A stretch of 64,000 nucleotides of DNA from Escherichia coli (lineage in GTDB: Bacteria > Pseudomonadota > Gammaproteobacteria > Enterobacterales > Enterobacteriaceae): NCBI RefSeq assembly GCF_044324875.1, contig NZ_CP172185.1; one strand, written 5' to 3'. The notes under the pieces were generated by a model. The model made no database searches. It was not told the DNA's origin and saw only the letters and a program-made list of their open reading frames with translations. Shown piece by piece: positions 8,061-40,219 of this stretch. The stretch's first letter is position 1. Every line of letters starts with the position of its first letter. The position numbers were made by a program, and so were the translations under genes.

Positions 8061-8432
8061 TCAGGCGCGGCGACCTTGCTGCGCCAACCAACGTGCGACA
8101 AAATCTTCCATTGCTTCTTTTTTGTTTCTTAGTTCTTTTATGATCTCTTGCTGTTCATTATCAGGAAATGCACTAAATATTTGTAGCAATTCCAGCTGGT
8201 TAGGGGTTAATGCTATAGCTCTTGATGATGGAGACTCTGTTATGTCTTCTGGCTCAATATCAAGATAACCCCCTGGCATCCCATATGTTTGTTCAATACG
8301 TCTAGCTGCTTTTTCGCCAAACGTAGCCTTACCGCTCATTAACTGAGATAAGTAACTTTTCTCTTTGGGTGGCAAAGTTCTGTCTTTGAACCACTCTTTG
8401 AGGCGTAAACGCCGAATCTCTCTTGTTTCCAT
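8061..8432 (-). CDS. dicA: Prophage immunity repressor, DicA-like (HTH_XRE)
   Basis: 123 aa. HTH (SYLSQLMSGKATFGEKAARRIEQTYG) and C-terminal LTPNQLELLQIFSAFPDNEQQEIIKELRNK resemble recalled Qin DicA. Divergent from the cro-like gene. Confidence 0.75.
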   Translation of the reverse strand: METREIRRLRLKEWFKDRTLPPKEKSYLSQLMSGKATFGEKAARRIEQTYGMPGGYLDIEPEDITESPSSRAIALTPNQLELLQIFSAFPDNEQQEIIKELRNKKEAMEDFVARWLAQQGRRA

Positions 8433-12549: not shown

Positions 12550-13215
12550 ATGACTATTGCTGATTTCAAACGGCCTAAATTGGAGCTCCCGAACGGGGCA
12601 AACAAACTACTACTGCACTCTTGCTGTGCTCCATGTTCCGGTGAAGTGATGGAGGCGCTTCAGGCCTCGGGAATCGACTACACCATCTTTTTCTACAACC
12701 CGAACATTCATCCTCAGAAAGAGTATTTAATTCGTAAGGATGAAAATATTCGCTTTGCTGAACAACACGGCGTGCCGTTTATCGATGCTGATTACGACAC
12801 CGACAACTGGTTTGAACGTGCCAAAGGAATGGAATGGGAGCCTGAGAGGGGGATCCGTTGTACCATGTGTTTTGACATGCGTTTTGAGCGGACAGCGTTG
12901 TACGCTGCTGAAAATGGTTTCAGTGTGATCAGCAGTTCACTGGGCATTTCACGCTGGAAAAATATGCAGCAGGTTAACGAGTGTGGGCGGCGAGCTGTTG
13001 CGCATTATCCGGGTATGGTGTACTGGGATTATAACTGGCGCAAGCAGGGCGGCTCGTCCCGTATGATTGAAATCAGCAAGCGCGAAAAATTCTATCAGCA
13101 GGAATATTGTGGCTGTGTGTATTCTCTGCGCGATACCAATCTACACCGCAAATCTCAGGGACGCCCTCTTATAAAAATTGGCCAACTCCACTACGGAAAA
13201 GAAGAGAAGGAGTGA
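12550..13215 (+). CDS. queH: QueH-like protein (DUF208; putative cobalamin-independent epoxyqueuosine reductase)
   Basis: 221 aa with N-terminal [10 protein letters not shown] motif, FYNPNIHP...EY, and C-terminal EYCGCVYS cysteines, matching my recollection of DUF208/QueH. Preceded by about 200 bp non-coding with a TTGACA-like element. Confidence 0.6.
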
Positions 13216-19441: not shown

Positions 19442-19792
19442 ATGCCATCACGAATCCCACGCGCCTGCCGTAAGCGTGGATGTGCAGGTACAACCACAGA
19501 CAGTTCTGGTTACTGCGATAAACATCGTGGCGAAGGATGGGTACAGCATCAACGCGGACTGAGCCGCCACCAGCGTGGCTATGGCTCGAAATGGGATGCC
19601 ATACGTGCGCGCATACTGAAGCGTGATAATCATCTGTGTCAGAACTGCCTGTGCAATGGGAGAGCTGTTGAAGCCAGAACTGTGGACCACATCATTCCGA
19701 AAGCTCATGGTGGCACGGATGCAGACAGTAACCTGCAGAGTCTGTGCTGGCCCTGTCATAAAGCAAAAACAGCGCGCGAACGCATCAATTGA
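19442..19792 (+). CDS. HNH endonuclease (terminase-associated)
   Basis: 116 aa with Cys clusters and HIIPKAHGGTDADSNLQSLCWPCH motif; located just upstream of terS/terL as in HK97-like phages. Confidence 0.8.
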   Translation: MPSRIPRACRKRGCAGTTTDSSGYCDKHRGEGWVQHQRGLSRHQRGYGSKWDAIRARILKRDNHLCQNCLCNGRAVEARTVDHIIPKAHGGTDADSNLQSLCWPCHKAKTARERIN

Positions 19793-19939
19793 TAACAGCT
19801 CCCATCTGCAGGGGAGGGGCGGGTCAAATCTCTGCAACCCAGGCTGCTCAGTACCGCCGCCTTGCCTTTCCTCGCATCGCCGCAGGTTCGAAAACTTTTT
19901 TTTGGAAAGTTATTAAATGATTGATAGGTAAAACCGATT

Positions 19940-20422
19940 ATGTCAGGACCCCCGAAAACCCCGCCACGCCTGCATTTGATACGAGGCAACCCCTCAAAGC
20001 GCCCCGTTAAAGACCCAAAAAAAACCGCTAAAAAGGATGAAAAAGGTCTCCCTAAAATTCCGCAACATTTAGGGTCGCAGGGGAAGTACTGGTTCAGGCG
20101 AATGGCGGAAGAACTGAATGCGGAAGGGATCATTTCTCAGCTTGATGCGCGTGCACTCGAGTTACTGGTGGAAGCCTACACCGAATACCGGCATTACTGC
20201 GAAACACTCGATGTTGAGGGGTATACCTACCGCACGGAAACGCAGAACGGTGATGTGCTGATTAAGGCACACCCGGCTGCTGCGATGAAAGCGGATGCCT
20301 GGAAGCGGATCCGGGCGATGCTTGCAGAATTTGGTATGTCACCGGCAAGCCGGGCGAAAGTAAATACCGCCGGACCGGATGATGTTGATCCGCTGGCGGA
20401 GCTTTTAAAAGCGAGAGACTGA
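19940..20422 (+). CDS. terS: Terminase small subunit
   Basis: 160 aa, basic N-terminus; stop overlaps the terL start. Confidence 0.7.
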   Translation: MSGPPKTPPRLHLIRGNPSKRPVKDPKKTAKKDEKGLPKIPQHLGSQGKYWFRRMAEELNAEGIISQLDARALELLVEAYTEYRHYCETLDVEGYTYRTETQNGDVLIKAHPAAAMKADAWKRIRAMLAEFGMSPASRAKVNTAGPDDVDPLAELLKARD

Positions 20423-22179
20423 TGGCAAAAGTGGCTGACGGGATCCGCTACGCCGAACGTGTTGTTGCAGGAGAAATTGTTGCTGGCGAATTTGTCCGCC
20501 TAGCCTGCCAGCGTTTTCTTGATGATCTGAAGTACGGCGAAGAGCGGGGGATTTATTTCAGTGAACCCCGTGCGCAGCACATCCTGAATTTCTACAAATT
20601 TGTGCCCCATGTGAAAGGGGCGCTGGCAGGCCAGCCCATTGAGTTGATGGACTGGCATGTATTTATCCTCATTAATATTTTTGGTTTTGTCATTCCGCTG
20701 GTGAATGAAGAGACCGGGGAAGTTGTCATGCGCAGCGATGGCAGCGGACGCCCGGTGATGGTGCGCCGGTTCCGGACGGCGTACAACGAAGTCGCCCGTA
20801 AAAACGCAAAATCAACCCTGTCATCGGGTATCGGCCTGTATATGACGGGGGCAGATGGTGAAGGCGGTGCTGAGGTTTATTCAGCCGCAACCACGCGTGA
20901 TCAGGCCAGAATTGTGTTTGAAGACGCCAAAAATATGGTCAGAAAAGCCCGGTCGACACTCGGGCGGTTGTTTGATTTCAACAAGCTGGCGATTTACCAG
21001 GAGCAGAGCGCATCAAAATTTGAGCCGCTTTCCTCGGATGCAAACAATCTGGACGGTCTGAACATCCACTGCGCCATTATTGATGAGCTGCATGCACATA
21101 AAACCCGTGACGTGTGGGACGTTCTGGAAACGGCAACCGGTGCCCGTCTGCAGTCCCTTTTATTTGGTATCACCACGGCAGGGTTTAACAAGGAAGGGAT
21201 TTGTTACGAGCAGCGTGATTACGCCATCAAGGTATTGCGTGGCTATAACAGCGACGTGGAGGGCGCGGTAAAAGACGACTCCTACTTTGCGATTATTTAC
21301 ACCCTCGATGAGGGAGATGATCCGTTTGATGAAACGGTCTGGCAGAAAGCGAATCCCGGCCTGGGCATCTGTAAACGCTGGGATGATCTGCGTCGCCTGG
21401 CGAAAAAAGCGAAAGAACAGGTCTCTGCGCGGGTGAATTTTTTTACCAAACACATGAATGTGTGGGTCACTGCCGAATCAGCCTGGATGGACATGATTAA
21501 GTGGGAGAAGTGCGAATATATTGCTCCACGACATGAGCTGAAAACATATCCCATGTGGGTCGGCGTTGACCTTGCTCATAAGATTGATATCTGTGCAGCG
21601 GCAAAACTCTGGCGAACGGATAACGGGCATGTTCATGCCGATTTTAAATTCTGGCTTCCGGAAGGACGGCTGGAACGATGCTCGCGGCAGCAGGCAGAAC
21701 TTTACCGGAAGTGGGCGGAGATGGATAAGCTGATTCTGACGGATGGTGATGTTATCGATCATGGCCAGATAAAAAGTGACTTACTGGAATGGACTGGTGG
21801 TGAAAACCTCAGGGAACTGGGATTTGACCCGTGGAGCGCGATGCAGTTCAGCCTGGCACTGGCTGAAGAAGGGATACCGCTGGTGGAGGTTCCGCAGACG
21901 GTTCGCAATCTGTCAGAGGCCATGAAGGAAACGGAATCACTGGTCTATGCCGGGCGTTTCCATCACAGCAATCACCCGGTCATGAACTGGATGATGTCTA
22001 ACGTTACGGTGAAACCGGACAAAAACGACAATATCTTCCCGAATAAATGCACGCCGGAAGCCAAAATCGACGGCCCTGTTGCGCTTTTTACAGCCATGAG
22101 CCGCCTTCTGGTAAATGGCGGGGACGTGAATGACTTTCTGTCCACGCTTGATCCTGATGAGGACCTGTTAATTCTGTGA
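20422..22179 (+). CDS. terL: Terminase large subunit
   Basis: 585 aa with ATPase motifs and acidic nuclease residues, recognised as HK97-type TerL. Confidence 0.9.
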   Translation: MAKVADGIRYAERVVAGEIVAGEFVRLACQRFLDDLKYGEERGIYFSEPRAQHILNFYKFVPHVKGALAGQPIELMDWHVFILINIFGFVIPLVNEETGEVVMRSDGSGRPVMVRRFRTAYNEVARKNAKSTLSSGIGLYMTGADGEGGAEVYSAATTRDQARIVFEDAKNMVRKARSTLGRLFDFNKLAIYQEQSASKFEPLSSDANNLDGLNIHCAIIDELHAHKTRDVWDVLETATGARLQSLLFGITTAGFNKEGICYEQRDYAIKVLRGYNSDVEGAVKDDSYFAIIYTLDEGDDPFDETVWQKANPGLGICKRWDDLRRLAKKAKEQVSARVNFFTKHMNVWVTAESAWMDMIKWEKCEYIAPRHELKTYPMWVGVDLAHKIDICAAAKLWRTDNGHVHADFKFWLPEGRLERCSRQQAELYRKWAEMDKLILTDGDVIDHGQIKSDLLEWTGGENLRELGFDPWSAMQFSLALAEEGIPLVEVPQTVRNLSEAMKETESLVYAGRFHHSNHPVMNWMMSNVTVKPDKNDNIFPNKCTPEAKIDGPVALFTAMSRLLVNGGDVNDFLSTLDPDEDLLIL

Positions 22180-22337
22180 AACAGCTTATTACTGATATGA
22201 CCGGGCTGATCGGTTTCGGTCTGCTCACTGCTGGCGTTTATCTGTATGCAGGTCTGCCAGCGTCTCTGATCCTGTCCGGCTGTTTGTTACTGCTTTATGC
22301 ACTGGTGGTGTCCATGAGGAGAAAACATGCTTCTTGA
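22176..22337 (+). CDS. Possible small membrane protein (about 53 aa) between terL and portal
   Basis: GTG overlapping the terL stop. VKQLITDMTGLIGFGLLTAGVYLYAGLPASLILSGCLLLLYALVVSMRRKHAS has two hydrophobic segments. Below the track's 60 aa cutoff. Confidence 0.35.
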   Translation: MKQLITDMTGLIGFGLLTAGVYLYAGLPASLILSGCLLLLYALVVSMRRKHAS

Positions 22338-23553
22338 TGCTCTGTTTCGCAGTGAACCTCTGGAAAATCCCTCGGTTCCGGTAACCGGAGAGACAGCTGA
22401 GACGGATAATATTTTTGCCCGGGATGTGTATGTCAGTCCGGAAACATCCATGAAGCTGGCTGCTGTCTATGCCTGTATTTATGTTATTTCATCCAGTGTG
22501 GCTCAGATGCCCCTGCATGTGATGCGAAAAACGGATGACCAGGTTCATCCGGCACGCGATCACCCGTTGTTCTGGCTCGTTCATGATGAACCGAATGCCT
22601 GGCAGACCAGCTATAAGTGGCGGGAACTGAAGCAGCGTCATGTGCTGGGGTGGGGCAATGGTTATACGTGGGTAAAACGTAATCGTCGTGGCGAGGTTAC
22701 CAGTCTTGAATGCTGTATGCCATGGGAAACCACGTTACTTAACACCGGTGGGCGTCATACCTACGGGGTGTATAACGAAGAGGGCGCATTTGCGGTAAGT
22801 CCGGACGACATGATCCATATCAGGGCACTGGGAAACAATCAGAAAATGGGACTGAGTCCGATCATGCAGCATGCTGAAACCATTGGCATGGGGATGAGCG
22901 GCCAGCAGTATACCAGTGCCTTTTTTAATGGTAACGCGCGTCCTGCCGGTATTATTTCTGTGAAAAATGAACTGAACGAACAGAGCTGGAGCAGGCTTAA
23001 AAATATGTGGCAGCGGGCGGTGACAGGGCTTCGCAGTCAGGAAAATAAAACTATGCTCCTGCCCGCGCAACTGGATTACCGTGCTCTGACAGTTTCACCG
23101 GTGGATGCTCAGATCATTGATATGACCAAACTGAACAGGTCGATGATTGCCGGGATTTTTAATGTCCCGGCGCACATGATTAATGACCTGGAAAAAGCCA
23201 CGTTTTCGAATATTACACAGCAGGCGATTCAGTTTGTTCGCTACACGATGATGCCCTGGGTTGCGAACTGGGAGCAGGAGCTTAACCGCCGCCTGTTTAC
23301 CCGTACAGAACGGGCTGCCGGGTATTACGTTCGTTTCAACCTCACGGGGTTGCTCCGTGGGACCCCACAGGAGCGTGCGCAGTTCTATCACTTTGCCATT
23401 ACAGATGGCTGGATGAGCCGGAATGAAGCCAGGGCATTTGAGGACATGAACCCGGTTGACGGTCTGGATGAAATGCTGGTCAGCGTAAATGCAGCAAATC
23501 CGTTGAATAACTTTAAAGATACGAAAGGCAAAGAGGAAAAGGACGATGAATGA
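22327..23553 (+). CDS. Portal protein (HK97 family)
   Basis: 408 aa ORF after terL; recognised as HK97-type portal by sequence and position. Confidence 0.85.
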   Translation: MLLDALFRSEPLENPSVPVTGETAETDNIFARDVYVSPETSMKLAAVYACIYVISSSVAQMPLHVMRKTDDQVHPARDHPLFWLVHDEPNAWQTSYKWRELKQRHVLGWGNGYTWVKRNRRGEVTSLECCMPWETTLLNTGGRHTYGVYNEEGAFAVSPDDMIHIRALGNNQKMGLSPIMQHAETIGMGMSGQQYTSAFFNGNARPAGIISVKNELNEQSWSRLKNMWQRAVTGLRSQENKTMLLPAQLDYRALTVSPVDAQIIDMTKLNRSMIAGIFNVPAHMINDLEKATFSNITQQAIQFVRYTMMPWVANWEQELNRRLFTRTERAAGYYVRFNLTGLLRGTPQERAQFYHFAITDGWMSRNEARAFEDMNPVDGLDEMLVSVNAANPLNNFKDTKGKEEKDDE

Positions 23554-24148
23554 CCGTGAAATCCGTTGTTACAGCGGTGAGGTGCGTGCTGAGAAGCATG
23601 ACGATAACCCGGCGCACATTATCGGTTATGGATCGGTGTTTGACAGTCGTTCTGAGCTGATATTCGGTTCATTCCGCGAAATCATCCGGCCCGGCGCTTT
23701 TGACGATGTGCTTGGTGATGATGTACGCGCACTGTTTAACCACGATCCTAATTTTATTCTTGGGCGTAGTGCAGCAGGCACGCTGAATCTTTCAGTTGAT
23801 GAACGTGGATTGCGCTATGACATCCAGGCTCCGGAGACACAGACCATTCGTGACCTGGTGCTGACCCCGATGCAACGCGGAGATATTAACCAGTCATCTT
23901 TCGCTTTCCGTGTCGCCCGTGACGGCGAGGAGTGGTATCAGGATGAGGACGGGGTTGTTATTCGCGAGATAACCCGCTTTTCCCGCCTGTTTGATGTCAG
24001 CCCGGTGACATATGCGGCCTATCAGGAGGCAGAATCTGGCGTTCGCTCGATGAAAGCCTGGCAGGAAGCGCGGGCGAGTGGTGCGCTGAAGAAAGCTGTT
24101 AATGAACGAATGGCGCGTGAGCGCCTTTTGACCCTTCTTAATGCATAA
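23546..24148 (+). CDS. Prohead protease (HK97 family)
   Basis: 200 aa between portal and capsid genes; overlaps the portal stop. Confidence 0.8.
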   Translation: MNDREIRCYSGEVRAEKHDDNPAHIIGYGSVFDSRSELIFGSFREIIRPGAFDDVLGDDVRALFNHDPNFILGRSAAGTLNLSVDERGLRYDIQAPETQTIRDLVLTPMQRGDINQSSFAFRVARDGEEWYQDEDGVVIREITRFSRLFDVSPVTYAAYQEAESGVRSMKAWQEARASGALKKAVNERMARERLLTLLNA

Positions 24149-24162
24149 GGATACTACTGACG

Positions 24163-25380
24163 ATGAAACTTCATGAGATGAGGCAAAAACGAAACACCAT
24201 TGCAAAGGATATGCGTGCACTGCATGAAAAAATTGGTGATAACGCATGGACTGATGAGCAACGGGCAGAGTGGAACAGGGCGAAAGCTGAGCTGGATGCG
24301 CTGGATGAGCAAATCGCCCGTGAAGAAGAGTTGCGCCGTCAGGATCAGGCATATGTGGATGAGTCCGGGCCGGAAGAGCGCCAGAATAATGAGGCGGAGA
24401 ACGGGAAAAAGGCGGTGGAAGAGAAGCGTGCTGCGGCATTTAACCGTTTTCTGCGTGCCGGATTTGCAGAACTGAATGCTGAAGAGCGTAATCTGATGCG
24501 TGAACTGCGGGCTCAGGGTGTAACAACGGATTCTCAGGGCGGATATACGGTGCCCACGCAGATGCGTAACAAAATCATTGACGCCATGAAGGCTTATGGC
24601 GGGATTGCCGGTGTGGCACAACTTCTGACCACATCAACCGGGCAGGATATCACCTGGTCAACGTCTGACGGCACGACTGAAGAGGGCGAACTGCTGGCGG
24701 AAAATACAGCCGCAACGGAGCAGGATGTGACGTTCGGGACTGCTATTCTGGGGGCTAAAAAGCTGTCATCAAAAATAATTCGTGTGTCCAATGAGCTGCT
24801 CCAGGACAGTGGGGTGGATATTGAATCTTATCTGGCAAACCGTATTGCCCAGCGTATTGGTCGTGGAGAGGCAAAATATCTGGTTCAGGGGACCGGAACG
24901 GGATCACCGTTACAGCCAAAAGGGCTGGCAGCGTCGGTGACGGGAACCATCCAGACTGCAGCTTCTGCCGCTTTCACCTGGAAAGAAATGAATGCCCTGA
25001 AACATGCCATTGATCCGGCATATCGTGGTGGGCCGAAATACCGCTGGGCATTCAATGATGCCACATTGCAGACTATTGAACAGATGGAGGATGGACAGAA
25101 ACGCCCGTTATGGCTTCCGGATATTGCAGGCGGTACGCCAGCTACTGTGCTGGGGATCCCTTATGTTATTGATCAGGCTATTGACGGGATTGGTACCGGG
25201 AAAAAATTCATTTTCCTGGGGGATTTCAACCGCTTTATCATTCGCCGCGTTACTTATATGGAGCTGAAACGTCTGGTTGAGCGTTATGCTGAGTTTGATC
25301 AGGTAGCATTTCTTGCTTTCCATCGTTTTGACTGTGTGCTGGAAGATGTGGCAGCCATCAAGGCGCTCACTGGCAAATAA
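24163..25380 (+). CDS. Major capsid protein (HK97 fold) with N-terminal delta/scaffold domain
   Basis: 405 aa; coiled-coil-like charged N-terminal 100 aa followed by a capsid domain. Confidence 0.9.
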   Translation: MKLHEMRQKRNTIAKDMRALHEKIGDNAWTDEQRAEWNRAKAELDALDEQIAREEELRRQDQAYVDESGPEERQNNEAENGKKAVEEKRAAAFNRFLRAGFAELNAEERNLMRELRAQGVTTDSQGGYTVPTQMRNKIIDAMKAYGGIAGVAQLLTTSTGQDITWSTSDGTTEEGELLAENTAATEQDVTFGTAILGAKKLSSKIIRVSNELLQDSGVDIESYLANRIAQRIGRGEAKYLVQGTGTGSPLQPKGLAASVTGTIQTAASAAFTWKEMNALKHAIDPAYRGGPKYRWAFNDATLQTIEQMEDGQKRPLWLPDIAGGTPATVLGIPYVIDQAIDGIGTGKKFIFLGDFNRFIIRRVTYMELKRLVERYAEFDQVAFLAFHRFDCVLEDVAAIKALTGK

Positions 25381-34031: not shown

Positions 34032-35474
34032 ATGGGTAAAGGCAGCAGTAAGGGGCATACCCCGCGCGAAGCGAAGGACAACCTGAAGTCCACGCAGTTG
34101 CTGAGTGTGATCGATGTCATCAGCGAAGGGCCGATACAAGGACCGGTGGATGGATTAAAAAGCGTGCTGCTGAACGGTACGCCGGTGCTGGACAGTGAGG
34201 GGAATACCAATATATCCGGCGTCACGGTGGTATTCCGGGCCGGTGAGCAGGAGCAGACGCCGCCGGAGGGATTTGAATCCTCCGGCTCCGAGACGGTGCT
34301 GGGTACGGAAGTGAAGTACGACACGCCGATTACCCGGACCATCACGTCGGCAAACATCGACCGTCTGCGCCTGACCTTCGGTGTGCAGGCACTGGTGGAA
34401 ACCACCTCAAAGGGGGACCGGAATCCGTCGGAAGTCCGCCTGCTGGTTCAGATACAGCGTAACGGTCGCTGGTTAACGGAAAAAGACATCACCATTAAGG
34501 GCAAAACCACCTCGCAGTATCTGGCCTCGGTGGTGGTGGGTAACCTGCCGCCGCGCCCGTTCAGTATCCGGATGCGCAGGATGACGCCGGACAGCACCAC
34601 AGACCAGCTGCAGAACAAAACGCTCTGGTCGTCATACACCGAAATCATCGATGTGAAACAGTGCTACCCGAACACGGCACTGGTCGGTGTGCAGGTGGAT
34701 TCGGAGCAGTTCGGCAGCCAGCAGGTGAGCCGTAATTATCATCTTCGCGGGCGCATTCTGCAGGTGCCGTCGAACTATAACCCGCAGACGCGGCAATACA
34801 GCGGTATCTGGGACGGAACGTTTAAACCGGCATACAGCAACAACCCGGCCTGGTGTCTGTGGGATATGCTGACCCATCCGCGCTACGGCATGGGGAAACG
34901 TGTTGGCGCAGCGGATGTGGATAAATGGGCGCTGTATGTCATCGGCCAGTACTGCGACCAGTCAGTGCCGGACGGCTCTGGTGGCACGGAGCCGCGCATC
35001 ACCTGTAATGCCTGGCTGACCACACAGCGTAAGGCGTGGGATGTGCTCAGTGATTTCTGCTCGGCGATGCGCTGTATGCCGGTATGGAACGGGCAGACGC
35101 TGACGTTCGTGCAGGACCGACCGTCGGATAAGGTGTGGACCTATAACCGCAGTAATGTGGTGATGCCGGATGATGGCGCGCCGTTCCGCTACAGCTTCAG
35201 CGCCCTGAAGGACCGCCATAATGCCGTTGAGGTGAACTGGAGTGACCCGGATAACGGCCAGGAGACGGCGACAGAGCTTGTGGAGGACACGCAGGCCATT
35301 GCCCGTTACGGTCGTAACGTCACGAAGATGGATGCCTTTGGCTGTACCAGCCGGGGGCAGGCACACCGCGCCGGGCTGTGGCTGATTAAAACAGAACTGC
35401 TGGAGACGCAGACCGTGGATTTCAGCGTGGGTGCTGAAGGGCTTCGCCATGTACCGGTGCAAAATGGCATCTGA
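34032..35474 (+). pseudogene. J: Host specificity protein J, N-terminal fragment (interrupted by IS21-family insertion at about 35458)
   Basis: MGKGSSKGHTPREAKDNLKSTQLLSVIDVISEGPIQGPVDGLKSVLLNGTPVLD matches lambda J. The reading frame runs into the IS and stops at 35474. Confidence 0.85.
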
Positions 35475-35659
35475 ATCGATCGCAGTTTGGCATTCGAATC
35501 GATCATGATTTGGCATCCATCTCCGATCACAGTTTGGCATCACAATCGATCACGATTTGGCATGCTTCCGATCATTGATTGGCATCCTGCCAGTCACTCC
35601 GGGAATTAACTCTTTTCACCACAGTCTCCATTGCCGTGTTTAAACCAGTGGAGACGTCA

Positions 35660-37225
35660 ATGTCCAGAAAGAGAAAATCCAGGAGCACTATGGAAACCTG
35701 TTTTAAGATCCTTCAGCTCAAGTTCGACAAGAAGCTGACTAACCGTTGTATCGGACTGACGTTACACATCAGCGCCTCAACCGTTTTTGAGGTTCTTGCC
35801 CGCTTCAAAGCCTCTTCTCTGTCATGGCCATTACCTGCTGATATATCCCATGACACGCTGGAGAAACTCATTTTTCCGCCCAAAGACACCTTTGCATCAG
35901 AGCTTGTAATGCCTGACATGTTGTACTTCGATACGGAAATGAGAAAACCAGGTGTGACGCGGCAACTGTTGTGGATGGAATACAAGGCACAGGCGGGTAA
36001 CAAAGCGATGGGATACTCGCACTTCTGCCGTTGCTACCGGGAGTGGAAAAAAACGCGACGTCTCTCCATGCGCCAGGAGCATCGTGCCGGCGAAAAGCTT
36101 TTTATCGACTTCTGTGGTCCTACGGTTCCTGTTATTAATCCGGACACCGGTGAGATACGCCGCGTGGCAATCTTCGTGGCCGTAATGGGGGCGTCCAACT
36201 ATACCTACGTTGAAGCGTGCGAAGGTCAGGACATGATGTCATGGTTAAATGCCCACAGCCGTTGCCTGACCTTCCTGGGCGGCGTACCGAAGCTGCTCAT
36301 CCCCGATAACCTCAGAAGCGCAGTGAAAAAGGCCGATCGATATGAGCCTGTCATCAACGACAGTTATCAGGCACTGGCTGAGCACTATGGCACGGTTATC
36401 ATCCCGGCCCGACCACGCAAACCTAAAGATAAACCAAAAGCAGAAAACGGCGTCCTCATCGTTGAACGATGGCTTCTTGCCCGCATCCGTAATGAAACCT
36501 TCCACACGCTCAGGGCGCTGAATGCGCGCCTTAGGGAGTTACTGACAGACATGAATAACCGGCCAATGAAGGGGTACGGCAATCAAACCCGTGCAGAACG
36601 CTTCCGCATACTGGATGCGCCAGCACTCTCTCCGCTGCCTCTGGCACCTTATGAATACACGGAATACAAAGCTGTGAAGGTTGGCCCTGACTACCACGTT
36701 GAATATGCCCGTCACTGGTACTCCGTTCCACACGAACTGGTCGGTCAGCGTCTGTCACTGAAGGCGGGGCAGTCGGTGGTACAGCTCTGGCACAAGGGGC
36801 AGTGTGTGGCGCAACATCCGCGCAGCACACATGAATATAAACACACAACCAATCCGCTTCACATGCCAGAGCGCCACCGGCAGCACGGGACATGGACACC
36901 GGAACGCCTGATCGAGCAGGGAAAACGTACGGGCCCGTCCACAGGCCGGGTGGTTGAATCCATGCTGAAGGCAAAACCCCATCCGGAACTGGCTTATCGT
37001 GCAGTTCTGGGGCTGCTGGCACTTCAGAAAAAATACGGCCCGGAACGGCTGGAAAAGGCCTGTTACGTTGCCCTGCACTATAACGCCCCTGACAGACGCT
37101 TTATCGACAATCTGCTGCGTCACCATCGGGAGAACCTGGAGCTTCCATTATCCCGCCAGGGCGAACAACATCCGGCATATGCTTCAGAGCATGAAAACCT
37201 GCGTGGTCCGGGCTACTACCACTGA
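35660..37225 (+). CDS. istA: IS21-family transposase IstA
   Basis: Internal ATG at 35660 with GGAG RBS; about 521 aa with N-terminal HTH and DDE-type core. Confidence 0.85.
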   Translation: MSRKRKSRSTMETCFKILQLKFDKKLTNRCIGLTLHISASTVFEVLARFKASSLSWPLPADISHDTLEKLIFPPKDTFASELVMPDMLYFDTEMRKPGVTRQLLWMEYKAQAGNKAMGYSHFCRCYREWKKTRRLSMRQEHRAGEKLFIDFCGPTVPVINPDTGEIRRVAIFVAVMGASNYTYVEACEGQDMMSWLNAHSRCLTFLGGVPKLLIPDNLRSAVKKADRYEPVINDSYQALAEHYGTVIIPARPRKPKDKPKAENGVLIVERWLLARIRNETFHTLRALNARLRELLTDMNNRPMKGYGNQTRAERFRILDAPALSPLPLAPYEYTEYKAVKVGPDYHVEYARHWYSVPHELVGQRLSLKAGQSVVQLWHKGQCVAQHPRSTHEYKHTTNPLHMPERHRQHGTWTPERLIEQGKRTGPSTGRVVESMLKAKPHPELAYRAVLGLLALQKKYGPERLEKACYVALHYNAPDRRFIDNLLRHHRENLELPLSRQGEQHPAYASEHENLRGPGYYH

Positions 37226-37241
37226 CAGAAGGAACAACAGT

Positions 37242-37997
37242 ATGAGTGATAACCTGTTAAACAAACTGACCCAACTGAAACTCCCGGCGATGGCCGGGAG
37301 CCTGATACGGCAGCGGGAAACGCCTCAGACCTACGACGAACTGTCGTTCGAGGAAAGGCTGACGCTGCTGGTTGATGACGAGCTTCTGAGCAGGGAAAAC
37401 AGCCGTGTGGCACGGTTGAGAAAAAATGCCGGCCTGAAATACCAGGCAACACCGGAAGGGCTGCGCTATCCGGCCTCAAGAGGTCTGCGGGCTGAACAGA
37501 TGAGAGAACTGCTGAACGGCCACTACATAACCCACAGGAAAAACCTGCTGATAACCGGTCCGACAGGATGTGGCAAGAGCTGGATAGCCAATGCGCTGGG
37601 CGAACAGGCATGTCGACAGAAACACAGCGTCCGGTACTGTAGAACCGGGCGATTACTGGAACAACTGGCTCAGGGACGTGTTGATGGCAGCTGGCTGAAA
37701 TATCTGAAACAGTTGCAAAAAATACAGGTTCTAATCCTGGACGATCTGGGGCTGGAACAGTTAAGTAACGCCCAGTGTAATGACCTTCTGGAGCTCATAG
37801 AGGATCGTTACGGACAAAGCAGCACGATAGTGGTAAGCCAGTTCCCGGTAGATAAATGGCATGGTCTGATGGAGAACCCAACAACAGCAGATGCCATCCT
37901 GGACAGACTGGTACATAACTCACACCGAGTGGTCCTTCAGGGAGAGTCACTGAGGAAAAATCCCCCGGTAGTGGAAAGCAGCGAAAAAACGCGTTAA
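37242..37997 (+). CDS. istB: IS21-family ATP-binding helper IstB
   Basis: MSDNLLNKLTQLKLPAMAGSL...LITGPTGCGKSWIANALG (Walker A)...LILDDLG (Walker B). Confidence 0.85.
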   Translation: MSDNLLNKLTQLKLPAMAGSLIRQRETPQTYDELSFEERLTLLVDDELLSRENSRVARLRKNAGLKYQATPEGLRYPASRGLRAEQMRELLNGHYITHRKNLLITGPTGCGKSWIANALGEQACRQKHSVRYCRTGRLLEQLAQGRVDGSWLKYLKQLQKIQVLILDDLGLEQLSNAQCNDLLELIEDRYGQSSTIVVSQFPVDKWHGLMENPTTADAILDRLVHNSHRVVLQGESLRKNPPVVESSEKTR

Positions 37998-38096
37998 AAA
38001 GCGGTAGAAAAAGTTAAGTTCCCGGTTGATCGAATGGATGCGAATCGCTGATCGGACTTCGATGCCAATCCGTGATCGAATAGAGCGGAATACGCA

Positions 38097-40219
38097 TACC
38101 GGGCGATGTCATTGAAATCTGTGATGATGACTATGCCGGTATCAGCACCGGTGGTCGTGTGCTGGCGGTGAACAGCCAGACCCGGACGCTGACGCTCGAC
38201 CGTGAAATCACGCTGCCATCCTCCGGTACCACGCTGATAAGCCTGGTTGACGGAAGTGGCAATCCGGTCAGCGTGGAGGTTCAGTCCGTCACCGACGGCG
38301 TGAAGGTAAAAGTGAGCCGGGTTCCTGACGGCGTTGCCGAGTACAGCGTGTGGGGGCTGAAGCTGCCGACGCTGCGCCAGCGCCTGTTCCGCTGCGTGAG
38401 TATCCGTGAGAACGACGACGGCACGTATGCCATCACTGCCGTGCAGCATGTACCGGAAAAAGAGGGCATCGTGGATAACGGGGCACACTTTGACGGTGAC
38501 CAGAGCGGCACGGTGAATGGTGTCACGCCGCCAGCAGTGCAGCACCTGACTGTCGAAGTCACCGCAGACAGCGGGGAGTATCAGGTACTGGCCCGCTGGG
38601 ACACGCCGAAGGTGGTGAAAGGCGTGAGTTTCATGCTTCGCCTGACCGTGGCAGCGGATGACGGCAGTGAGCGGCTGGTCAGCACGGCCCGGACGACGGA
38701 AACCACATACCGCTTCAGGCAGCTGGCGCCGGGGAACTACAGGCTGACAGTCCGGGCAGTAAATGCCCGGGGGCAGCAGGGAGACCCGGCGTCGGTATCG
38801 TTCCGGATTGCCGCACCGGCAGCGCCGTCGCGGATTGAGCTGACGCCGGGCTATTTTCAGATAACCGCCACGCCGCATCTTGCCGTTTATGATCCGACGG
38901 TGCAGTTTGAGTTCTGGTTCTCGGAAAAGCGGATTACCGATATCAGGCAGGTTGAAACCACAGCCCGTTATCTTGGTACCGGAAGTCAGTGGCTTGTCTC
39001 CGGCCAGAATATTAAACCTGGCCATGATTATTACTTTTATATCCGCAGTGTTAACACTGTCGGTAAATCGGCATTCGTGGAGGCAGTCGGTCGGGCGAGT
39101 AATGATCCTGCCGGTTACCTTAATTTTTTCAGGGGGGCGATAAATAAAACGCATCTGGGACGGGAGATCAATGAACGCATTGATGCCTCTGCACGGCGCA
39201 CTGAAGTTGAGCAACTGGAGAATGCGATTAACCGCGAAATGACGCAGCTGGAGAATGCGATTAACCGCGAAATGACGCAGCTGGAGAAAGATGTGAGGCA
39301 GCGTGCGGAGCGTGATATCGCAGAGGTGACGAAAAAAATCACGGCGTCTGAAAACAGCATAACGGAACTGGTGGCGAAAAAGAGCGGTGAACAGTCGCTG
39401 GCCATTGCGAAAGTCGACAGGAAAGTTGACAGCGTGAGCAGTGAAATCCGGCAGACAGTAAGCAGGAGCACGGAGGAGAACAGCCGACAGATAGCGCAGG
39501 TCAGGCAGTATGTTGATGATAAAAGTGCGCAAATAAGTACTGTTGTGGCGAAAAAGAGCGGTGAACAGTCAATGGCCATTGCGGAAGTTGACAGAAAAGT
39601 TGACAGGATGGGCAGCGAAATCCGGCAGACAGTAAGCAGGAGCACGGAGGAGAACAGCCGACAGATAGCGCAGATCAGACAGTATGTTGATGATAAGGGA
39701 AGTCAGATCAAACAGAGCACGGATAAAAAACTGGGATCCTGGAATGCCAGCATTGAGCAGATACAGAAAGTTCAGGAGGACACGCGCCGGAACCTGAACA
39801 GCATGTGGGCTGTGAAGCTGCAGCAGACACGGGATGGACGTCTCTATATTGCAGGTATTGGTGCCGGAATCGAAAATACGTCTGACGGAATTCAGAGTCA
39901 GATCCTGATGCAGGCAGATCGTATTGCGATGATTAACCCGGAAAATGGCAATACAACACCTTTGTTTGTGGCTCAGGGTGATCAGCTGTTCATGAATGAT
40001 GTTTTCATGAAAAAACTGACCGTGGATTTTGCCAGAGTGACGGGAGATATCCGGTCAGATAATTTTCATTCCGGTAGTCCGGGGTGGCGTTTATCAAGAA
40101 ACGGCAGCCTTGAAATTAACTCAGGAAGGCCCGGCGCAGGCCGCCTGTTTTTCAATGGCGAGCGAATCGACGTATATGACGATAACAATGTGTTAAGAGT
40201 ACGACTGGGGAGACTGTAA
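38097..40219 (+). pseudogene. J: Host specificity protein J, C-terminal fragment (distal tip diverges from lambda and carries tandem duplications)
   Basis: Continues the lambda-J-like sequence [43 protein letters not shown]. Track ORF 38159..40219. Confidence 0.85.
39214..39718 (+). repeat. Tandem duplications inside the J distal region: 2 x 33 bp and 2 x about 174 bp
   Basis: CTGGAGAATGCGATTAACCGCGAAATGACGCAG twice ([11 protein letters not shown] x2). A larger unit starting GTGGCGAAAAAGAGCGGTGAACAGTC repeats at about 39371 and 39545 with about 90 percent identity. Confidence 0.7.

Follow-up and report, generated by a model that had tools for sequence, protein, structure and literature searches.

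A probable HK97-type cos region between the HNH endonuclease and small terminase genes of an Escherichia coli prophage

The non-coding gap between the HNH endonuclease and small terminase (terS) genes of an Escherichia coli prophage is very probably the cos region of a lambdoid prophage with an HK97-type head and packaging module. We analyzed it within a window of 64,000 nucleotides, the whole stretch of DNA under study; coordinates count from the first letter of the window, and signed positions are relative to the predicted top-strand nick. This cos is an unannotated new instance of an already known kind of element, and as such it is ordinary and expected. The only thread that is mildly novel is the combination of a conserved G-rich box (G-box) at a fixed distance from the cohesive end and a junction between packaging modules exactly at that end.

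In HK97-like phages, cos is known to lie between the HNH and terS genes. The original prediction of a 147-bp HNH–terS gap with a G-rich segment was borne out by the open reading frames, the Pfam matches and the coordinates. The non-coding gap spans exactly 19793–19939 and contains the G-rich run CTGCAGGGGAGGGGCGGG at 19806–19823. The gene order is HNH–gap–terS–TerL–portal–protease–capsid, with the following features.

19442–19792, + strand: HNH endonuclease, 116 aa (PF01844 HNH, E 2.4e-15), a gp74-like accessory nuclease of the packaging machine
19940–20422, + strand: small terminase (terS) of the P27 family, 160 aa (PF05119 Terminase_4, E 2.2e-25)
20422–22179, + strand: large terminase (TerL), ATPase and nuclease (PF03354 and PF20441)
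22327–23553: portal (Pfam)
23546–24148: S78 prohead protease (Pfam)
24163–25380: HK97-type major capsid protein (Pfam)

The HNH protein is 37% identical to HK97 gp74 over 70 aa (E 2e-11) and 72–90% identical to the HNH proteins of phiP27, SfI, SfV and mEp235. TerL shares 28% identity with HK97 gp2 over 466 aa (E 1e-40) and 37% identity with the TerL of phiP27. For terS, the identity is 56% to the protein of Klebsiella phage 1 LV-2017 and about 23% to that of phiP27, and BLASTP detected no similarity to HK97 gp1. The prophage as a whole is a complete lambdoid element that extends from an integrase beside tRNA-Ser through the tail fibres. The tRNA-Ser(cga) gene (869–958) adjoins the gene for a 341-aa tyrosine integrase (1011–2036) and is likely the attachment site of the prophage.

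We compared the gap with phages whose genome ends are known. Megablast of the region matched 13 phage records. Under the match, the record of phiP27 carries a 10-bp misc_feature named 'cos-site', which reads CGCCCGCCCC. The 10-nt end of SfI, TGCCCGCCCC, comes from run-off sequencing of virion DNA from both sides: compared with the prophage, a gap of 10 nt remained between the reads (PMC3636060), as would be expected of 3' overhangs. The overhangs of HK97 are 10 nt long and 3' (PMC9410871). The numbering used for HK97 in PMC11331095 (T16, G:C at 21, then the A-tract) matches the first bases of the HK97 GenBank record. That record should therefore start at +1, with its last 10 nt (CGCCGCCAAA) as the overhang. 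The four sequences compare as follows.

HK97: GGGCAGGGGGGGGGATCAAATC-N22-GACCGCCGCCAAA, cut, GTTTGAATTT (end of the record, then its start)
SfI: GGGGAGGGGCGGGTCAAATC-N22-GACTGCCCGCCCC, cut (end of the record)
phiP27: GGGGAGGGGCGGGTCAAATC-N22-GACCGCCCGCCCC, cut, GTCAAATTTT (annotated cos-site CGCCCGCCCC)
Window: GGGGAGGGGCGGGTCAAATC-N22-TACCGCCGCCTTG, predicted cut, CCTTTCCTCG (spacing identical to HK97, SfI and phiP27)

From −54 to −4, the gap aligns without gaps with the ends of the HK97 record, the mapped end of SfI and the cos-site of phiP27. Counting from the T of TCAAATC, the end is reached after 41 nt in HK97, SfI, phiP27, mEp235, the Klebsiella and Morganella phages and the window. The comparison with HK97-like cohesive ends, which the original prediction had named as its check, thus works with identical spacing. 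The column-for-column agreement with the ends of HK97, SfI and phiP27 supports the proposal that the gap is a cos or packaging site. Phage records of the window's own cos type (phi467 and the vB_Eco series) are not linearised at cos.

Phage Evi (L091, LR597642.1, about 12770–13050) was unusable as a further end-defined relative, having an inverted terS fragment instead of the cos core. Its HNH 3' part and cos left half are replaced by the inverted 5' region of terS, a rearrangement that probably arose in assembly, at the physical end of the genome.

By homology with these ends, we predict nicks at 19864/19865 on the top strand and at 19854/19855 on the bottom strand. The elements of the predicted cos region are listed from left to right.

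19811–19830, + strand: G-rich box GGGGAGGGGCGGG (19811–19823) and TCAAATC (19824–19830), −54 to −35 from the top-strand nick
19831–19850, + strand: variable spacer of fixed length, −34 to −15, with low information content and no length variation
19851–19861, + strand: nick-proximal box GTACCGCCGCC, −14 to −4, family consensus GGACCGCCGCC
19855–19864, + strand: predicted 10-nt 3' cohesive end CGCCGCCTTG, in columns shared with the last 10 nt of HK97, the mapped SfI end and the phiP27 cos-site
19875–19903, + strand: candidate terS-binding site (cosB-like) CATCGCCGCAGGTTCGAAAACTTTTTTTT, +11 to +39
19914–19926, − strand: sequence TATCAATCATTTA, which matches the IHF core consensus WATCAANNNNTTR exactly and lies after the T-tract and before the terS ribosome-binding site

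To profile conservation, we selected 80 IMG/VR loci by HNH protein homology alone (74–99% identity) and pooled them with HK97, phiP27, mEp235 and the Klebsiella and Morganella phages. In the anchored alignment of 74 unique relatives, the columns of the G-box and TCAAATC are among the most conserved. The family G-box, GGGGAGGG(G)CGGG at −54 to −42, is nearly invariant and is followed by a partly conserved TCAAA(TC). The nick-proximal box is also nearly invariant in the 74 unique sequences and recurs at the right end of HK97, the SfI end and the phiP27 cos-site. No base is fixed at −3 to −1 (variants TAA, TGA, TCA, CCC, CAA, CTC, TTA and AAA, and TTG only in the window). The G-box, the fixed spacer and the nick box together make up the left half of cos, which appears to be common to all phages with homologous HNH and TerL proteins.

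The composite motif, a G-rich 14-mer at a fixed distance upstream of ACYGCC, was present in 76 of the 80 IMG/VR loci, downstream of the HNH gene and adjoining terS, and never on the reverse strand in these 80 loci. A second, unrelated plus-strand match lies about 1.3 kb downstream, inside the terminase genes, in 12 loci. Among the four loci that lack the motif, two are on contigs whose sequence ends just past the HNH gene, the G-run of a third is shorter, and the fourth is locus L045. The motif remains beside terS in loci whose HNH and terS genes are separated by 300–800 bp of extra genes.

The loose form of the motif (at least 9 G in 14 nt, 29–43 nt upstream of ACYGCC) was rejected as evidence on its own: it is too permissive, with at least one match in 59 of 500 shuffles of the window, and was therefore replaced by a matrix test and an anchor-independent spacing test. 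The weight matrix, made from 51 unique cos left halves less than 80% identical to the window, scored 58.0 bits at 19805–19864. The next best site on both strands of the 64-kb window scored −9.1, and the best score over 200 shuffles was 7.8. The spacing test was anchored only on ACYGCC[CG][GC]C followed by a terS-sized ORF, and the most G-rich 13-mer was sought in the 100 nt upstream. This 13-mer (8–12 G) ended 26–30 nt before the A of the anchor (ACCGCC) in 74/74 unique sequences. The constant spacing of the G-box is not an artefact of alignment anchoring.

Some relatives carry additional DNA near cos. Loci L038–L062 and others have 300–800 bp of extra genes between HNH and cos, among them a small Cys-rich ORF that starts with MSYTRCTYCGS and later contains a GHNSSACP motif (zinc-knuckle-like). 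In HK97 this interval likewise measures about 320 bp. In phage PhiR49_2 (PV340570.1, 17701–19484), our 1,051-bp query spans 1,784 bp, which corresponds to an insertion of about 730 bp separating the HNH side from cos or terS.

We located the cos type of the window at 906 places in 855 of 5,426 complete E. coli genomes (about 16%). The CCTTG ending of this copy is rare. The last two overhang bases (19863–19864) are TG in the window and GA in nearly all close relatives. A 45-nt probe centred on the CCTTG variant, a design in which megablast can seed only if the variant is present, matched one of the 5,426 complete genomes (TUM1886). The same probe with CCTGA matched 633 genomes. The TG copy could therefore be a mutated, less efficient cos site.

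The tail-tip gene J of this prophage is also interrupted. A 2.6-kb insertion (35458–38098) splits it into 34032–35474 and 38159–40219 and is absent from the 99.3%-identical TUM1886 prophage. The insertion encodes ORFs at 35579–37225 (rve and Mu-transposase C; istA) and 36999–37997 (IstB_IS21; istB), identifying it as an IS21-family element. The prophage of the window is probably tail-defective, and with J split in this way virion ends may not be mappable from the window strain.

A decayed, non-functional cos relic in a defective prophage would account for the rare TG at −2/−1 (one genome against 633 for GA), and the IS21-family element in J points the same way, as does the homologous integrase of the nearly identical TUM1886 prophage, which is annotated as frameshifted. 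We nevertheless consider a relic unlikely. All conserved cos columns are intact, including the G-box, TCAAATC, ACCGCCGCC and the right half of the type called A below, and HNH, terS and TerL are full length and match phage phi467. Positions −3 to −1 are naturally variable across the family, so the TG change in the overhang is probably tolerated. Moreover, both genome ends come from one cos, and a change in the overhang would therefore stay self-complementary.

The run CTGCAGGGGAGGGGCGGG is the most striking sequence of the gap and is strongly conserved. The cosN of lambda is G/C-rich and partly symmetric, and the run could by this likeness be the cleavage site and cohesive end itself, a palindromic cosN-like nicking site. 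The ends of the relatives make this very improbable: in HK97 and SfI they are 41 nt past the T of TCAAATC, outside the G-run, and the cos-site feature of phiP27 is also downstream of it. The G-run moreover lacks dyad symmetry. The comparison instead places it as a conserved box 42–54 nt upstream of the top-strand nick, distinct from the cohesive end.

Of the 'G-rich palindromic segment' in the original prediction, the G-richness stands and the palindrome does not. We found no inverted repeats in 19760–19960 (seed 6). As folded single-stranded DNA, the gap did not exceed its shuffles in stability (z = +0.56; 137 of 200 shuffles folded as well or better). On these two results we rejected a palindrome or hairpin in the gap; the predicted 'partially symmetric flanks' were not confirmed. 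The sole symmetry consists of CTGCAG itself and a 5-bp GGCGG/CCGCC pair (19818–19822 / 19854–19858). We also rejected a conserved dyad that would pair the G-box with the C-rich nick box, as GGCGG/CCGCC is all that the window offers and HK97 lacks it. A G-quadruplex seems unlikely, the box of the window having only three G-runs.

Scans for a promoter, a terminator or an RNA element gave nothing relevant: the gap contains no terminator-like sites, no plus-strand promoters (one weak promoter-like match is on the minus strand) and no Rfam families at E ≤ 1. The AGG ribosome-binding site about 11 nt before the terS ATG and a T8 run that could pass for a terminator tail might suggest a spacer that serves only transcription or translation, with a terminator, promoter or RNA element beside the ribosome-binding site of terS and no packaging role. 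This is scarcely conceivable against these scans, the fold z of +0.56 and boxes that keep a fixed distance to the mapped ends of relatives whatever gene lies upstream.

To the right of the predicted nick, the cos sequences fall into discrete types.

Type A (window): CCYTTYYTCRCAYCGCCGCAGGTTMGAAAMCTTTTTT
Type B (SfV, SfI, phiP27): RTCNNWTTTTTAYACCCGCGAAA...
Type HK97 (HK97): GTTTGAATTTAACGCTAACCCGATTTTTTT

These types follow the terS gene. The CGCCGCAGGTT block is present in 49/49 loci whose terS is 57–100% identical to that of the window. It is absent from 28/28 loci with SfV/P27-type terS, which have ACCCGCGAAA in its place. The right-half type matches the terS type in 77/77 loci that carry a recognised right-half type, and the two terS clades (window type and SfV/P27) are only about 22% identical to each other. 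The cos region appears to be modular, its right half changing together with terS. The site bound by HK97 terS, +15 to +29, consists of a GC core with an A-tract after it (PMC11331095). Since the right half tracks the terS type and the HK97 biochemistry fits, we assign 19875–19903 as the probable terS-binding site. The +15 to +29 geometry is carried over from HK97 only by analogy, because the terS of the window has no detectable similarity to HK97 gp1.

The IHF match at 19914–19926 is, as a bending site, speculative. It was noticed post hoc and is one of seven matches to the consensus in the window, where 2.85 are expected. Of the 44 unique type-A relatives, 21 retain the match, at +49 to +52; in the Klebsiella and Morganella relatives it is not preserved.

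Two independent pairs of loci are mosaic at cos. To the left of the nick, L050 and L053 share 99–100% identity over at least 97 nt, and from −2 or −1 rightward their sequences are unrelated; the same is true of phiP27 (L001/L027) and L034. The terS type switches with the right half at these junctions (−2/−1). Because the junctions are abrupt in both pairs, we interpret the cohesive end as the junction between the HNH-side and terS-side modules, and it appears to serve as a module-exchange point between phages. Judged from these alignments, and independently of the mapped ends, the mosaic junction identifies this same coordinate as a functional boundary. Such junctions could arise by homologous recombination within the invariant GACCGCCGCC, or by annealing of the near-identical cohesive ends of two co-infecting phages.

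Our model of packaging is based on HK97, in which the gp74 HNH protein stimulates cos cleavage (PMC9410871), terS recognises a downstream site, TerL makes the cut, and a downstream cos occupied by terS stalls the motor (PMC9410871, PMC10359639, PMC11331095). In the prophage of the window, excision and concatemer formation would be followed by binding of the terS ring to its type-specific site at about 19875–19903 and, by homology, recruitment of TerL. Aided by the HNH protein from the gene immediately upstream, TerL would nick the two strands 10 bp apart (top 19864/19865, bottom 19854/19855), leaving the 10-nt 3' cohesive ends CGCCGCCTTG. Packaging would then proceed rightward, with the terS gene first, and stop at the next cos. 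The G-rich box and the GACCGCCGCC box would be the last DNA into the head. The G-box would thereby be the last conserved element to reach the motor, and our guess is that it acts on TerL/HNH positioning or on termination.

By its position the G-box is cosQ-like, making it a candidate upstream cos subsite. As a guess from the position of cosQ in lambda, it most likely positions the TerL/HNH nuclease or signals termination. A broader proposal, which we hold tentatively and rate slightly below an even chance, is that the G-box with TCAAA (19811–19830), 41 nt from the top-strand nick, is an undescribed essential cos subsite, either for TerL–HNH docking or positioning or as a cosQ-like termination signal. 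It would be common to HK97, SfV/SfI, phiP27 and hundreds of enterobacterial prophages, and the cohesive end would be the preferred swap point of the left (HNH) and right (terS) packaging modules. No mention of the G-box was found in the HK97 packaging literature searched (PMC11331095, PMC9410871, PMC10359639) or by searches with motif strings.

The conceptual gain is small because the HNH–terS placement of cos was already known in HK97-like phages. In practical terms, the analysis gives probable genome ends for a prophage type present in about 16% of complete E. coli genomes. This can be used in annotation, in PhageTerm-style end calling and in recognising cos-dependent mobilisation of satellites or plasmids. 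A modest added value lies in the comparative anatomy: a universal left half with a G-box at fixed distance, a terS-specific right half, and module exchange exactly at the cohesive end. The G-box is also a concrete element to mutate in the HK97 in vitro packaging system.

Among known systems, lambda (cosQ–cosN–cosB) resembles the window in its three-part layout, with one element upstream, then the nick site and then the terS-binding region beside terS, and in the possible IHF site in the downstream part. Lambda differs in having 12-nt 5' overhangs at a symmetric cosN and no HNH protein, and its cos sequences are unrelated to those of the window. The lambda cosN GGGCGGCGACCT has no exact match in the 64-kb window; matches with one mismatch, at 8065 and 12985, are in the early region and well away from the terminase genes. 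A lambda-type cos was rejected, as the cosN sequence was not found beside the terminase genes. Headful (pac) packaging was rejected too, TerL being closest to those of the cos phages HK97 and phiP27 and the conserved end motif being present.

HK97 shares the placement of cos upstream of terS and downstream of an HNH gene, the G-run followed by TCAAATC, the 41 nt to the top-strand nick and GACCGCCGCC at the nick, and its HNH protein (37%) and TerL (28%) are homologous. Its overhang is CGCCGCCAAA, compared with CGCCGCCTTG in the window, and to the right of the nick the two sequences are unrelated. The terS of the window belongs to the P27 family (PF05119), whereas Pfam has no match for HK97 gp1. 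The distance from the HNH gene to the nick is about 320 bp in HK97 and 72 bp in the window.

The differences from phiP27, SfV and SfI are concentrated at the overhang and to its right. These phages have C/TGCCCGCCCC where the window has CGCCGCCTTG, their right half is of the ACCCGCGAAA type and that of the window of the CGCCGCAGGTT type, and their terS, a member of the same Pfam family, is only about 23% identical to that of the window. On the left, the HNH proteins are 74–90% identical, and this half of cos hardly differs, with GGGGAGGGGCGGGTCAAATC at equal spacing.
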